Of a stretch of DNA of 20,000 nucleotides, positions 3,076 to 6,510 are shown one piece after another. The notes under the pieces were generated by a model that saw only the letters and a program-made list of their open reading frames with translations, did not search any database and had not been told where the DNA came from. Positions within the stretch are counted from its first letter, which is position 1, and each line of letters starts with the position of its first letter. Source of the DNA: an uncultured virus (IMG/VR IMGVR_UViG_3300010938_000034) (taxonomy: Duplodnaviria; Heunggongvirae; Uroviricota; Caudoviricetes); IMG/VR virus record IMGVR_UViG_3300010938_000034; one strand, 5' to 3'. A program made the translations under genes and the position numbers.

Positions 3076-3189
3076 ATGCCTTTTGGACAAGCTATTCCAG
3101 CAACCCCTGCTGACCCATTACAGGCTCAGGGATTTAGAACGCAGCGTGCGGAACTTCCAGAGGATTTGTGGCAACCTTTGTATGACCGT
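3076..3189 (+). CDS. putative major capsid protein, exon 1 (38 codons, MPFGQ...QPLYDR)
   Basis: AAGGAGGTG SD; the exon ends at U3189, which forms the U.G pair of intron helix P1; joins in frame to 4300. Confidence 0.85.
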
Positions 3190-4299
3190 AAACTTTATGC
3201 GGTCAATAAATTCCATGAAGTCGGAGAAAATCCAGAACGGATAACTCCGAGCCGAGCCTAAAAGGCAGGTGTAGAGACTAAAGTATGAAGGAACTTTCTC
3301 CAAAAAGAAGATCAAAAAAAATACTTTTAGGAACTTTAATGGGAGACTCTTCTTTATTTGAAACTTCCCATAAGAAAGCTATGTTTAAAACTACGCATGG
3401 AGCAGACCAGATCCACTATCTTATGTATAAATTGAATGCTCTCTATCCACTTCTGGGAAGTTTTAGAGTTTCCTTTACAGGTGGAGGAAGTTTTGAGAGA
3501 TGGAATGCAAAGAAAAGGATAACCGCTTGGTCGTTAAGCTCTACCTATCTTAAACATATCTACGATGATTTCTATTCCAATAAAATTAAGAAGGTAAGGC
3601 TTAACGTTTTAAGAAGAATGGATGAGTCTTCTTTGGCTTTCTGGTATATGGATGATGGTTGTTTAGCAAAATCAAATGGAAAGTTTTATGGAATCCATTT
3701 AAATACTCAAGGATTCGATCTTGAGGATCAAGAAACCATCATCAAATATTTTAGCGAAACATGGAAGATAAAATTTCATATTACTGAAGAAAGAAAAAAT
3801 AATAAAACCTATTACTACTTGAGAGCGAACAAGGAAGATTCAGAAAGATTTTTAAATCTAATTAATCCTTTTATTTGCAGTTCCATGCTCTATAAAGTAG
3901 ATCCTTCATACGAAAGAATGGAACATTCCGATAGGGATGAAGATATAGTCCGAACCTTGCAGGAATGCAAGGAGATTATCAGAAATGATAATCCTTCGGA
4001 AGATTCTAAGATTGAACTAAATGGAGAAATTTTAGAGGATATATCCAAAAAAATTGAGACCAAAGGCTATTTTGTTAAAGTGAATCACTGGAGGCAGAAA
4101 ACTCCAATCATTTTTTTTAGAGTAAGTGGGGACTATGATTCATTAGAAAAAATTAAAATGGTCTTTGGTGGATGCATTTACTTTAGTAGAGTTTGGATAT
4201 ATCAAGCTACAATAAATAGTTTCAAAGAAAAAATATTCCCAAAAATTTCTCCATTCCTGAAAACAAATAAATTTAAGAATCTTCCGATGTAACATATTG
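3190..4299 (+). ncRNA. group I self-splicing intron (1110 nt) with internal LAGLIDADG ORF
   Basis: P1 TGACCGT 3183-3189/GCGGTCA 3199-3205 with U.G at the splice site; P3 TTCCAT 3211-3216/ATGGAA 3918-3923; P4 TCGGAG 3221-3226/CTCCGA 3245-3250; P7 GACTA 3276-3280/TAGTC 3946-3950, preceded by J8/7 AAGATA; P8 3924-3939; P9 hairpins with GGAA and GAAA tetraloops (3955-3972, 3974-3993); terminal G4299; P10 TTTAT 3194-3198 pairs with exon-2 GTAAA. Confidence 0.93.
3285..4292 (+). CDS. intron-encoded LAGLIDADG homing endonuclease (two-motif type) with C-terminal extension
   Basis: Motifs ILLGTLMGDSSL and SLAFWYMDDGCL, followed by LNTQGF; the ORF lies wholly inside the intron. Confidence 0.88.
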   Translation: MKELSPKRRSKKILLGTLMGDSSLFETSHKKAMFKTTHGADQIHYLMYKLNALYPLLGSFRVSFTGGGSFERWNAKKRITAWSLSSTYLKHIYDDFYSNKIKKVRLNVLRRMDESSLAFWYMDDGCLAKSNGKFYGIHLNTQGFDLEDQETIIKYFSETWKIKFHITEERKNNKTYYYLRANKEDSERFLNLINPFICSSMLYKVDPSYERMEHSDRDEDIVRTLQECKEIIRNDNPSEDSKIELNGEILEDISKKIETKGYFVKVNHWRQKTPIIFFRVSGDYDSLEKIKMVFGGCIYFSRVWIYQATINSFKEKIFPKISPFLKTNKFKNLPM

Positions 4300-4848
4300 G
4301 TAAATTACCCCAATGCTGGGACTACGCAGCTGTCGTTTTTCTCAACTCCTATGGGTCAGTCGGCAACATTAATTACAGGTGTGGGTGCGGCAGCAACAAA
4401 AGTTAAGGATTATAGGGATACCAATATGCAGAATGCTAATGTTGTTCCTACAAAACTTTTTAAATTTGTGGGAATCAGCATTGCATTCATTAATCAGATG
4501 CCAGGAGATCCAAACAATGCTGCCGATAGAGATAGGGTAAGGAACAATGCCTATCTTAGATTCAGGATTGTAGACAAGGATATTCTTTATATTCCTTTAG
4601 TCTGCATTCCCGAAGTGAATCCATTAGTTGTTGGTTCAACAACTGTTACAGCAACAACCATTTTGGGTTCTGCTGGTGGAGGTGGGCAGAATGTTCCAAT
4701 GTATAAGCTACCTATCCCTGTAACTTTGAATCCTTACGAGAACTTTAGTGTAGATATTGTGCTGTCTGCTGCTGTTGCTCTTGCAAGCAGTTCTTATAGC
4801 ATGGATATCTACATGATACTCCAAGGATTCATGAGAAGGCCAACTTAA
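4300..4848 (+). CDS. putative major capsid protein, exon 2 (182 aa; spliced product 220 aa; probable single jelly-roll)
   Basis: No SD or ATG of its own; in-frame junction LYDR|VNYPNAGTTQLSFF; beta-strand-rich, with C-terminal LPIPVTLNPYENFSVDI...IYMILQG pattern; capsid role inferred from composition and gene context. Confidence 0.7.
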   Translation, partial: VNYPNAGTTQLSFFSTPMGQSATLITGVGAAATKVKDYRDTNMQNANVVPTKLFKFVGISIAFINQMPGDPNNAADRDRVRNNAYLRFRIVDKDILYIPLVCIPEVNPLVVGSTTVTATTILGSAGGGGQNVPMYKLPIPVTLNPYENFSVDIVLSAAVALASSSYSMDIYMILQGFMRRPT

Positions 4849-4909: not shown

Positions 4910-5707
4910 ATGGATATACCAAAAGAGGATTTAGCTTATATGGCAGGGTTTTTTGATGGTGAGGGATACATCTCCTTTTTTAAAGTAAGAGGAGAGGATT
5001 CAGTTGAATCTGGAATAACCCAAACTATTATGGAACCTTTGCTGTTATTTGCTAAATACTTCGATGGTAATATCCATAAAGGGAGAGTAACCCGAGGGGG
5101 ACTCCAGATATATAGGTTTAGAACCTCAAGTAAAGAGAATATTGGAGTCCTCCTTTCTTCCCTATTTCCTTATTTGATAGTTAAGAAATCGAAGGCTATG
5201 CTTGCGTTGAAATTTATTGGGAATGAGATACCTCAGGAGAGTGCGGATGAGAAGTTTCTTATTCCTTATATGGCTGGATTTTTTGATGCAGAAGGTTCGA
5301 TATCAGTAAGAGTTCGGAAAGAGGGCAAAAAAGTTAAAGTTTATGGTAATAAACTTCAACCATTAATTGTTATGCAACAGACCTGTATCGAACCGCTTCT
5401 TTTATTTAAAAAAACTTTTGATGGATATTTATATGAAAAAGGTTCAAAAACTCAAAAAGGTTCACCTATATTTTATTACAGACTTAACCTTTCGCAGATT
5501 CCCAGATTCTTTGAACTCCTTGGAAAGTATCTGATTGTTAAGCGTCAGCATGCAGAATTGGTTTTTAGACTTCAGCAGATAAAGTTGAAGCATAATGGTA
5601 AAGATCCAAAGATTCATGAGAAATGGGATATTGCGAAACAGATTATAGATTTGAATTCTAAGAAAGGGAATAAAGAGAATTGTAAAATTCTTCAACTTAT
5701 TAATTAA
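4910..5707 (+). CDS. free-standing double-motif LAGLIDADG homing endonuclease
   Basis: LAYMAGFFDGEGYI and IPYMAGFFDAEGSI motifs; own SD; lies between two intact genes with no intron core around it. Confidence 0.9.
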   Translation: MDIPKEDLAYMAGFFDGEGYISFFKVRGEDSVESGITQTIMEPLLLFAKYFDGNIHKGRVTRGGLQIYRFRTSSKENIGVLLSSLFPYLIVKKSKAMLALKFIGNEIPQESADEKFLIPYMAGFFDAEGSISVRVRKEGKKVKVYGNKLQPLIVMQQTCIEPLLLFKKTFDGYLYEKGSKTQKGSPIFYYRLNLSQIPRFFELLGKYLIVKRQHAELVFRLQQIKLKHNGKDPKIHEKWDIAKQIIDLNSKKGNKENCKILQLIN

Positions 5708-5733: not shown

Positions 5734-6510
5734 ATGGCATGGAGAGAATATTTTATATATGGAATTAATTTTAGTAGTATAACTGCAGGTGATGGAACAT
5801 TATTTACAAGAGATATTATTAGGATGGATAGTGATTCTGATTTTGAACTTCAAAAAATAGTAGCTATAGCAACAAGTAGAAACTTAAGGATAAGAATTAT
5901 TGATGATTCAACTGGAAGGTTTTTAATAAAACAATCAGCAAGTTTGAGGGATATGGCAGGAGGTAGTATTTTAACACCTTTTATATTACCAAGACCTTTT
6001 CAGATTCTAGCAGGCTCAACATTAACAATTGAAGTTGCAGATTCTTCTGGAAAAAGTAATTCTTTAAGGCTTTATTTTCATGGTGCAAAAATAAGACCAG
6101 GAGACCCGCCTTGGGGAGTTTATGATAATGTTACTAAAAGAATAGTTATGAAAAAGTATAAAGCTGTTTTACCATTTATTTACAATACGGGAGTCCAAAC
6201 AGTTTCAGGAAGCTTATCCACTTATACAAGAATTGAAGTTGATAATGATGCACATTTTTTAATTCAAAAAATAACAGGATTTTCATCTCAGGCTATTTTA
6301 CTTGATTTCAAAGATATGCCTAGAGATATTAGCTGGCAGAATATAGCTATCCATCACGAAGCAATTTTAGGTAGCGGAGACTTTCCTAATATTTTATTTG
6401 CTAACAGATTTATACCAAGAGGTTCGGTTATATCTATAAATGTCCAGAACTTATCTTCAAGTCAAGCTACCTTTGAAATAAATCTTATAGGAGTGAAATT
6501 ATATGAATAA
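5734..6510 (+). CDS. putative capsid-associated protein made of two tandem homologous beta-sandwich domains
   Basis: Internal repeat: YFIY..MDSDSDFELQKI..PFIL..GSTLTIEV..FHGAKI versus PFIY..VDNDAHFLIQKI..PNIL..GSVISINV..LIGVKL. Confidence 0.6.
   Translation: MAWREYFIYGINFSSITAGDGTLFTRDIIRMDSDSDFELQKIVAIATSRNLRIRIIDDSTGRFLIKQSASLRDMAGGSILTPFILPRPFQILAGSTLTIEVADSSGKSNSLRLYFHGAKIRPGDPPWGVYDNVTKRIVMKKYKAVLPFIYNTGVQTVSGSLSTYTRIEVDNDAHFLIQKITGFSSQAILLDFKDMPRDISWQNIAIHHEAILGSGDFPNILFANRFIPRGSVISINVQNLSSSQATFEINLIGVKLYE

Follow-up and report, generated by a model that had tools for sequence, protein, structure and literature searches.

A predicted group I intron of an uncultured phage in which the endonuclease frame crosses the ribozyme core into a putative third LAGLIDADG domain

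We analysed a 20,000-nucleotide (nt) stretch of DNA from an uncultured member of the Caudoviricetes (IMG/VR record IMGVR_UViG_3300010938_000034), referred to here as the window, and found at positions 3190-4299 an element with the features of a mobile group I intron. Its single open reading frame (ORF) encodes a predicted LAGLIDADG_2 homing endonuclease in the loop of the P7.1 arm, runs on through the 3' half of the ribozyme core and continues into the enlarged loop of a second arm, P9.2, where it encodes a further domain with a predicted LAGLIDADG fold. Taken as a whole, this explanation, a mobile intron with a P7.1 endonuclease that reads through the core to a third domain in P9.2, appears probable to us. 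Overlap between an intron ORF and the ribozyme core is usually taken to be accidental and tolerated, its protein product being of no importance; here the arrangement is conserved, and the translated core would tether a complete two-domain endonuclease to a folded domain from another loop. A single stretch of 1.1 kb would have to function as a ribozyme, code for an enzyme and form two RNA arms of unusual stability, all at once. The coordinates of all features are collected in Table 1.

Splice junction and ribozyme core

The intron interrupts a conserved host gene of 220 codons with 285 homologues at E<=1e-3, of which 120 were listed and seven fetched (P0032-P0036, P0039 and P0043; 210-220 amino acids (aa), identity to exon 2 up to 93%). 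None of the seven has an intron, and all are colinear over the junction, reading ...LWQPLYDR(V/A)NYP... with no interruption, and the window reads ...LYDR up to 3189 and VNYP... from 4300. Because the intron-less homologues place the junction between LYDR and VNYP, we set the intron at 3190-4299. In a contig of metagenome run X2, positions 3186 and 4321 are separated by 24 other letters, a number equal to the 3 + 21 exon letters between them, and read by eye these 24 encode R-A-N-Y-P-Q-A-G; this contig is an intron-less allele in DNA, with a deletion of exactly the size of the intron. Contigs of both metagenome runs (X1 and X2) also omit 11 letters within exon 1, at 3158-3170, which probably reflects the divergence of relatives of low likeness.

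The features of a group I intron, namely a P1 capped by a U.G pair, a terminal G and helices P3 to P9 with the P3/P7 pseudoknot, are all present, and by sequence the element is a mobile group I intron for which self-splicing is predicted. P1 (with its U.G at 3189), P10 and the terminal G4299 would define the splice sites, and splicing would rejoin ...LYDR with VNYP.... An earlier reading of the window by a model that saw only the letters (the sequence-only reading) had named helices P7, P3', P8, P7' and P9; these names hold, and only their exact limits needed setting. An unconstrained minimum free energy fold of the whole 1137 nt contained P1, P3, P4, P5, P6, P7.1, P8, P9, P9.1 and P9.2; the P7 pseudoknot was not among its helices. 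Both insert-bearing arms are closed by perfectly complementary strands, GTATGAAGGA (3283-3292) with TCCTTCATAC (3902-3911) in P7.1 and TCGGAAGATTCT (3996-4007) with AGAATCTTCCGA (4276-4287) in P9.2, and a repeat finder extends both, to 13 nt at 92% for P7.1 (repeat I9) and to 18 nt at 89% for P9.2 (repeat I4). By our own estimate, a sequence of 1.1 kb with 33% G+C holds by chance about 2 stems of 10 bp and about 0.1 of 12 bp, and a single 10-bp stem is not beyond chance at this length. Both stems recur, with different sequences, at equivalent positions in related introns.

These relatives came from two sources. A metagenome locus (L081, 940-3475) carries a homologous gene with three related introns at three sites, none of which is the site used in the window; introns A and B contain endonuclease ORFs of 263 and 264 aa, and intron C is ORF-less and has neither P7.1 nor P9.2. 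A viral contig (L080) carries an ORF-less related intron that matches Rfam Intron_gpI (RF00028) with 88.5 bits and yields the same helix assignment. Covariation was compared qualitatively over five introns (the window, A, B, C and L080), A and B being near-identical in the 3' core. Pairs were counted by script on explicit helix strands, because in the MAFFT alignment (A4) of the 3' cores P9 of intron C is shifted by one column and P8 of L080 is misplaced. Every helix present was fully paired in all five, with the sole exception of P7.1 in intron B (11 of 12 pairs), and changes on both sides were seen in P3, P4, P6a, P7, P7.1, P8, P9, P9.1 and P9.2. The pairing logic of P1 recurs with other sequences in introns A, B and C. 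The stem equivalent to P7.1 is GGTGGAA/TTCCACC in intron A, and within this stem A and B carry a Shine-Dalgarno-like GGTGGA or GGAGA. P9.2 is a 5-bp hairpin in L080, absent from C, closed round a loop of about 65 nt in A and B and round one of 268 nt in the window. The motif GTAACA near the 3' end is also present in A, B, C and L080 and provides the ORF stop in A and B. Possession of P7.1/P7.2 between P7 and P3' is a trait of subgroup IA; one such arm, P7.1, occurs in the window, A, B and L080, and none in C. Part of the criteria for this subgroup are those given in a section of PMC3984707. The metagenome scan also returned two further loci (L082 and L083), which were dropped as DNA without a ribozyme core motif, their peptide match being due to chance. 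Besides L080, scans of IMG/VR returned only distant LAGLIDADG_2 genes (<=36% identity).

Some results weigh against the group I assignment. Rfam gave no RF00028 match on the window, either at the gathering threshold or at E<=10, and none on the ORF-less intron C; the silence on the window can be put down to the 609-nt and 268-nt inserts, which break the model. Because Rfam misses both, the assignment rests on helices built by hand, on covariation in only five introns and on homology to L080. Among the sequencing runs listed in a search with the window stretch there was no RNA run. Weak Rfam matches in the window (microRNA, small nucleolar RNA and similar) were discarded as chance.

Endonuclease frame and third domain

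The sequence-only reading had described a frame of 335 aa, two perfect stems and a stop 7 nt before the 3' splice site, and all of these lie where it placed them. The start codon (ATG 3285) is within the 5' strand of the P7.1 stem, and the stop (TAA 4290-4292) is separated by 7 nt from the 3' splice site after G4299. The N-terminal part is covered end to end by PF03161 (99 bits, cut-off 25 bits; positions 2-168 of the 168 in the profile), and Foldseek superposed about 210 columns on I-WcaI and I-SceI at E 3e-13 with TM scores of 0.72-0.74 of the target. In an alignment (A1) of the best 16 of the 31 homologues found, G20 and D21 are at least 90% conserved and D123-D124-G125 is invariant over 16 sequences; we take both groups of residues to lie at the active site. 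The ORF thus encodes a predicted I-SceI-like two-motif LAGLIDADG enzyme, looped out between P7 and P3' by the P7.1 stem as had been proposed. It resembles the monomeric LAGLIDADG_2 enzymes I-SceI and I-WcaI in its end-to-end PF03161 match and in two motifs with conserved acids. Those enzymes end after two domains, whereas the window enzyme adds a 40-aa linker and a third domain of predicted LAGLIDADG fold.

Leaving the P7.1 loop, the frame crosses 84 nt of ribozyme (P3', P8, P7', P9 and P9.1), corresponding to 28 dual-coded codons (aa 210-237), and enters the second insert in P9.2, again in keeping with the sequence-only reading. The peptide encoded by the core, (D/E)(E/D)IVR(T/S)LQxCKExxRN, is found in 16 of the 16 aligned relatives and is the best-conserved part of the C-terminal half (R233 invariant; R223, L225, Q226, C228 and E230 at least 90% conserved). 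This conservation is best explained by the RNA. The sequence-only reading had held that stop codons in the core of relatives would speak against it. The frame is open in all 16 and, through to the tail TAA, in introns A and B; stops were found only in the ORF-less introns: in C the loops of P8 and P9.1 hold TGA, and in L080 the P9 loop, GTAA, supplies a TAA. In the AlphaFold 2 (AF2) model, the core-encoded stretch is a poorly ordered linker with a predicted local distance difference test score (pLDDT) of 48-69. One relative, P0010 (432 aa), starts with a peptide resembling exon 1, then runs through an initial copy of the core peptide, apparently from the core of an ORF-less intron, and only afterwards enters the endonuclease, which suggests that it has two introns close together.

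Beyond the core, a C-terminal part of about 98 aa (aa 238-335) is common to 10 of the 16 aligned relatives (P0001-P0009 and P0013). Identity to the window sequence ranges over these ten from 17 to 49%, and K54, F57, G58, G59 and Y69 are invariant. Modelled alone from the ten-row alignment, this part gave a pLDDT of 85.8 and a predicted template modelling score of 0.74, with the same topology as in the full-length model. The 44 Foldseek matches listed for the third domain are all LAGLIDADG endonucleases (query TM score, TMq, 0.48-0.60; probability 0.90-1.00). VIA-align against 48,161 chains placed LAGLIDADG folds at ranks 1-18 (Z 8.7-5.0), the first unrelated row having Z 4.9; the leading matches were 3uvf (8.7), I-MsoI (8.3), I-CvuI (8.1), I-CreI (7.9) and WhiA (7.8), with about 89 of 98 residues aligned. 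The nearest ESM-Atlas clusters, taken as a lead only, are LAGLIDADG proteins of 107-152 aa (0.86-0.88). At the level of prediction, therefore, a LAGLIDADG fold is supported for the third domain, and with it the description of the protein as a three-domain LAGLIDADG; the earlier suggestion of a degenerate single LAGLIDADG domain in the second insert agrees with the AF2 fold and with structural matches that are all LAGLIDADG.

A number of observations argue in the opposite direction. The best Foldseek match, I-SmaMI (E 5.1e-3, TMq 0.57), and all others fall short of the 1e-3 line, VIA Z scores of 7-8 can come from common arrangements, and the fold comes from one family of AF2 models on a shallow alignment. 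A Pfam scan of the third domain found no LAGLIDADG family (PF00961, PF14528 or PF03161) at E<=1, and phmmer against the PDB found nothing at E<=10. Profile comparison (hhalign) with domains 1 and 2 of the same protein gave a 13-column match only; such self-comparisons are weak, as even domains 1 and 2 fail to find one another. With the third domain as query, BLASTP returned nothing significant from either the neighbouring LAGLIDADG ORF (E 0.28) or the N-terminal part of the same protein. A hidden Markov model (HMM) of the domain, run over the 170 collected proteins, matched nothing beyond the ten sequences on which it was trained; it did not pick up the short tails of P0010, P0012, P0015 and P0016, which could not be shown to be remnants. 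Besides the query itself, phmmer over 1.84 billion representatives returned 19 matches, all long proteins with 3-20 matching stretches each, which we judged to be motif coincidence (FGG...W.Y); of seven scanned in Pfam, six were Kelch-repeat proteins and one had no clear family.

The conserved acid at the end of helix 1 is absent from the third domain, the position being occupied by K, N/K, R/N, H or Y in the ten sequences (alignment A3; register by eye), and the helix face that usually bears small residues has charged ones. Because of these two features the third domain would be non-catalytic and probably monomeric. Compared with I-CreI, I-MsoI and I-CvuI, its close structural matches (Z 7.9-8.3 over 89-91 residues, root-mean-square deviation 2.6-3.2), it is 12-17% identical, lacks the conserved acid and the small-residue helix face and is not a separate gene. 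WhiA (DUF199) offers a different comparison, since an excerpt of PMC3984707 describes its non-catalytic LAGLIDADG fold as a nucleic-acid-binding module; WhiA itself acts in cells as a transcription factor, carries a helix-turn-helix domain and is not encoded by an intron.

Origin and possible role of the third domain

In a tree built from the shared part (267 columns, 23 rows), the 16 relatives make up one clade (support 97/90). Its backbone is unresolved, and proteins that have the third domain are interspersed there with proteins that lack it. Six of the 16 have no third domain, and P0011 lacks it while its sister P0008 has it (100/99). Because of this distribution the domain appears dispensable for persistence. 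Judged from the sequences, the third domain would have been lost at least once, and the core read-through would have arisen before it or independently of it. As relatives without the third domain read through too, the read-through was presumably not made by fusion.

In the explanation that we favour, a LAGLIDADG_2 homing endonuclease gene would occupy the P7.1 loop with its start codon paired in the P7.1 stem. Lacking a stop codon within that loop, the gene would continue through P3', P8, J8/7, P7', P9 and P9.1 ("core creep") to the TAA of the tail. In the lineage of the window and nine sequenced relatives, P9.2 would have been enlarged by an in-frame insert encoding the third LAGLIDADG-fold domain, which the poorly ordered linker translated from the core would tether to the enzyme. 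The domain would act as an accessory nucleic-acid-binding module, most likely extending the DNA target and less likely helping the intron RNA to fold. By analogy, pairing of the start codon in P7.1 may limit ribosome entry to the core and so keep ribosomes off it until splicing is complete; ribosome entry into the core of the T4 td intron harms splicing, as stated in an excerpt of PMC3073962.

The sequence-only reading had gone further and proposed two independent invasions fused through dual-coding RNA; the third fold and the dual coding were borne out, and a once-separate endonuclease gene was not shown. In its full form, this proposal has homing endonuclease genes invading both P7.1 and P9.2, the second being of the single-motif I-CreI type with its own start and stop, and the two becoming fused by read-through after the first lost its stop. 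Such a history would suit the fold and size of the third domain, which are those of a single-motif LAGLIDADG protein, and its nearest Atlas clusters, which are small phage LAGLIDADG proteins (scores <0.9). It would also suit its location in a separate peripheral loop, the usual landing site for such genes according to part of PMC3073962, and another LAGLIDADG gene lies in the window 600 nt away. We nevertheless consider it unlikely, given that no free-standing sequence relative of the third domain is found among the 1.84 billion representatives, that the head of the insert has no in-frame ATG, that the conserved acidic residue is missing and that there is no similarity to the neighbouring gene. 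Moreover, since read-through to the tail TAA is seen in every one of the 16 relatives, also in the six that lack the domain, fusion needed no separate loss of a stop. Under the favoured explanation the third domain was probably captured from another LAGLIDADG gene once the read-through existed; its source may have been a separate endonuclease gene, a duplication or something else.

A different role is conceivable, in which the third domain binds not DNA but the folded intron, as a maturase or RNA-binding module specific to it, perhaps gripping the long P9.2 or P7.1 arms, and stabilises the intron at high temperature. LAGLIDADG proteins can be maturases, bI3 and I-AniI are among the structural matches, and a Thermotoga LAGLIDADG protein stabilises its own intron at high temperature (PMC3984707, in part). 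Two runs with relatives are labelled hot springs metagenome, and both insert arms are unusually structured RNA. Yet introns A and B and six relatives manage without the third domain, and C and L080 manage without any protein; we hold this role to be rather improbable.

The structure of the arms also bears on whether the C-terminal 98 aa are simply a tolerated by-product, with the P9.2 insert selected as a stabilising RNA arm and the frame merely open. Folding of the P9.2 arm, with long nested stems (3996-4013/4270-4287, 4020-4042/4233-4255 and 4038-4049/4192-4203), reaches z -6.05 (none of 200 shuffles does as well), and that of the P7.1 arm z -6.4 (none of 20 shuffles). Among control pieces of 292 nt, z lay between +0.4 and -1.6 for eight of 12 other coding pieces and was -2.4 and -2.9 for two. 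The two exon 2 pieces (4400-4841) reached -5.3 and -7.9 against dinucleotide shuffles, so strong folding is not unique to the intron; no long inverted repeat was found when sought in exon 2. The absence of the domain from six of 16 relatives would fit a by-product, as would the expectation, in excerpts of the core-creep paper (PMC3073962), that such extensions are often non-essential. However, the frame of the region stayed open over 98 codons in only 3 of 20,000 composition shuffles (1.5e-4), and over 126 codons in none of 20,000; the other two frames have 8 and 16 stops. Run X1 contains two variants over 3939-4271 with 22 and 41 differences and no gaps, and the five differences listed within 3996-4289 are all synonymous (read by eye; 40 shown of about 330). 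The open frame, gap-free variants and synonymous differences are evidence that the region is kept as protein. Adding the confident and specific predicted fold and the residues that are invariant in ten relatives with identities down to 17%, we regard a mere by-product as very improbable.

That the third domain is a working recognition module, making the protein a natural three-domain meganuclease, and was recruited since the core could be translated as a linker, is a possibility that we hold with some doubt. If true, core creep would be a route to new protein architecture and not merely a tolerated overlap, and the module would either lengthen the DNA target by about a half-site or clamp the intron's own long arms. 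Pairs with and without the third domain, such as P0008 and P0011, would allow the gain to be measured. The system is in this sense a natural test of whether core-encoded extensions become functional, and may suggest a scaffold for meganucleases that carry an extra recognition domain.

Core creep, in which an ORF in a peripheral loop grows into the core helices, was described by Edgell, Chalamcharla & Belfort (2011, PMC3073962, in part). Table 1 of that paper, as excerpted, includes a LAGLIDADG ORF in the Synechococcus lividus large-subunit intron that overlaps P6/P7/P3/P8/P9.0/P9 by 81 nt, compared with 84 nt in the window. In the cases covered by those excerpts the ORF ends within the core and the extension is expected to be unimportant, whereas the window frame exits the core and encodes a folded domain in a second loop. 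The T4 td intron with I-TevI is alike in being a phage group I intron in which the endonuclease start is hidden in an RNA hairpin and the end of the ORF overlaps the core (20 nt); I-TevI, as far as the same excerpts describe it, is a GIY-YIG enzyme encoded in P6 with an overlap of six codons, against 28 codons plus a domain in the window. Phage structural genes split by self-splicing introns are known from capsid genes of Cluster J mycobacteriophages (PMC3706429) and from crAss-like phages (PMC7886860); no three-domain endonuclease is mentioned in their abstracts. A non-exhaustive full-text literature search found no protein with three LAGLIDADG domains (one mention of "three LAGLIDADG" counts genes, not domains), and no ORF that re-exits the core to encode a further folded LAGLIDADG-type domain in a second loop. 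Because ORF/core overlap was already known, the new element is the folded domain beyond the core.

Feature coordinates and neighbouring genes

Table 1. Coordinates of the host gene, the intron and its parts in the window
Feature	Position	Strand	Remarks
Ribosome-binding-site-like AAAGGAGGTG	upstream of ATG 3076	+	sequence reading
Exon 1 of host gene	3076..3189	+	38 codons, last letters GACCGT
Group I intron (predicted)	3190..4299	+	1110 nt, last letter G4299; junction set by intron-less homologues
P1	3184-3189 GACCGT / 3199-3204 GCGGTC	+	U3189.G3199 pair at 5' splice site
P10	3194-3198 TTTAT / exon-2 4300-4304 GTAAA	+	partly by sequence reading
P3	3211-3216 TTCCAT / 3918-3923 ATGGAA	+	6/6 paired in all five related introns, both-side changes
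P4	3221-3226 TCGGAG / 3245-3250 CTCCGA	+	encloses P5
P5	3230-3233 / 3239-3242	+	inside P4
P6/P6a hairpin	3251..3270	+	loop contains stop of exon-1 frame, TAA 3259-3261
P7	3276-3280 GACTA / 3946-3950 TAGTC	+	GATCA/TGATC in intron C, both sides changed
P7.1 arm	3283..3911	+	10-bp stem 3283-3292 / 3902-3911 round first insert (609 nt)
Endonuclease ORF	3285..4292	+	335 aa, single open frame, stop included
Two-motif LAGLIDADG_2 core	3318..3851	+	aa 12-189; PF03161 E 3.7e-28
Ribozyme 3' core	3912..3995	+	translated as aa 210-237
P8	3924-3929 / 3934-3939	+	loop GATA; followed by J8/7
P9	3955-3961 / 3966-3972	+	loop GGAA
P9.1	3974-3981 / 3986-3993	+	loop GAAA
P9.2 arm	3996..4287	+	12-bp stem 3996-4007 / 4276-4287 round 268-nt second insert (4008-4275)
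Third domain (predicted)	4023..4256	+	aa 247-324; AF2 alpha-beta-beta-alpha-beta-beta-alpha-alpha
3' tail TGTAACATATTG	4288..4299	+	contains ORF stop TAA 4290-4292 and terminal G
Exon 2 of host gene	4300..4848	+	182 codons and stop; 93% identity to P0032 over 100% of length

All ORFs of the window are on the + strand and include an SLT transglycosylase, a cell-wall hydrolase and a peptidoglycan-binding protein; a search of deposited phages with the window DNA gave no near-identical match. Neither the host gene (3076-4848) nor the next ORF (5734-6510) matched a Pfam or PHROG family. The ESM-Atlas neighbours of the host gene are viral clusters without a name (0.98), and the nearest named clusters are of PRD1 P2/P3 type, at chance level (0.75-0.77); a capsid role is only a guess.

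An unrelated two-motif LAGLIDADG_1 ORF of 265 aa (4910-5707, + strand; PF00961 E 1.7e-10) stands free between the host gene and the next ORF, and the homologous spacer of L081 has no such gene. Upstream, a 304-aa ORF (2060-2974, + strand) without a family match contains three or four NP...RRRRRR repeats and has a hydrophobic C-terminal half.

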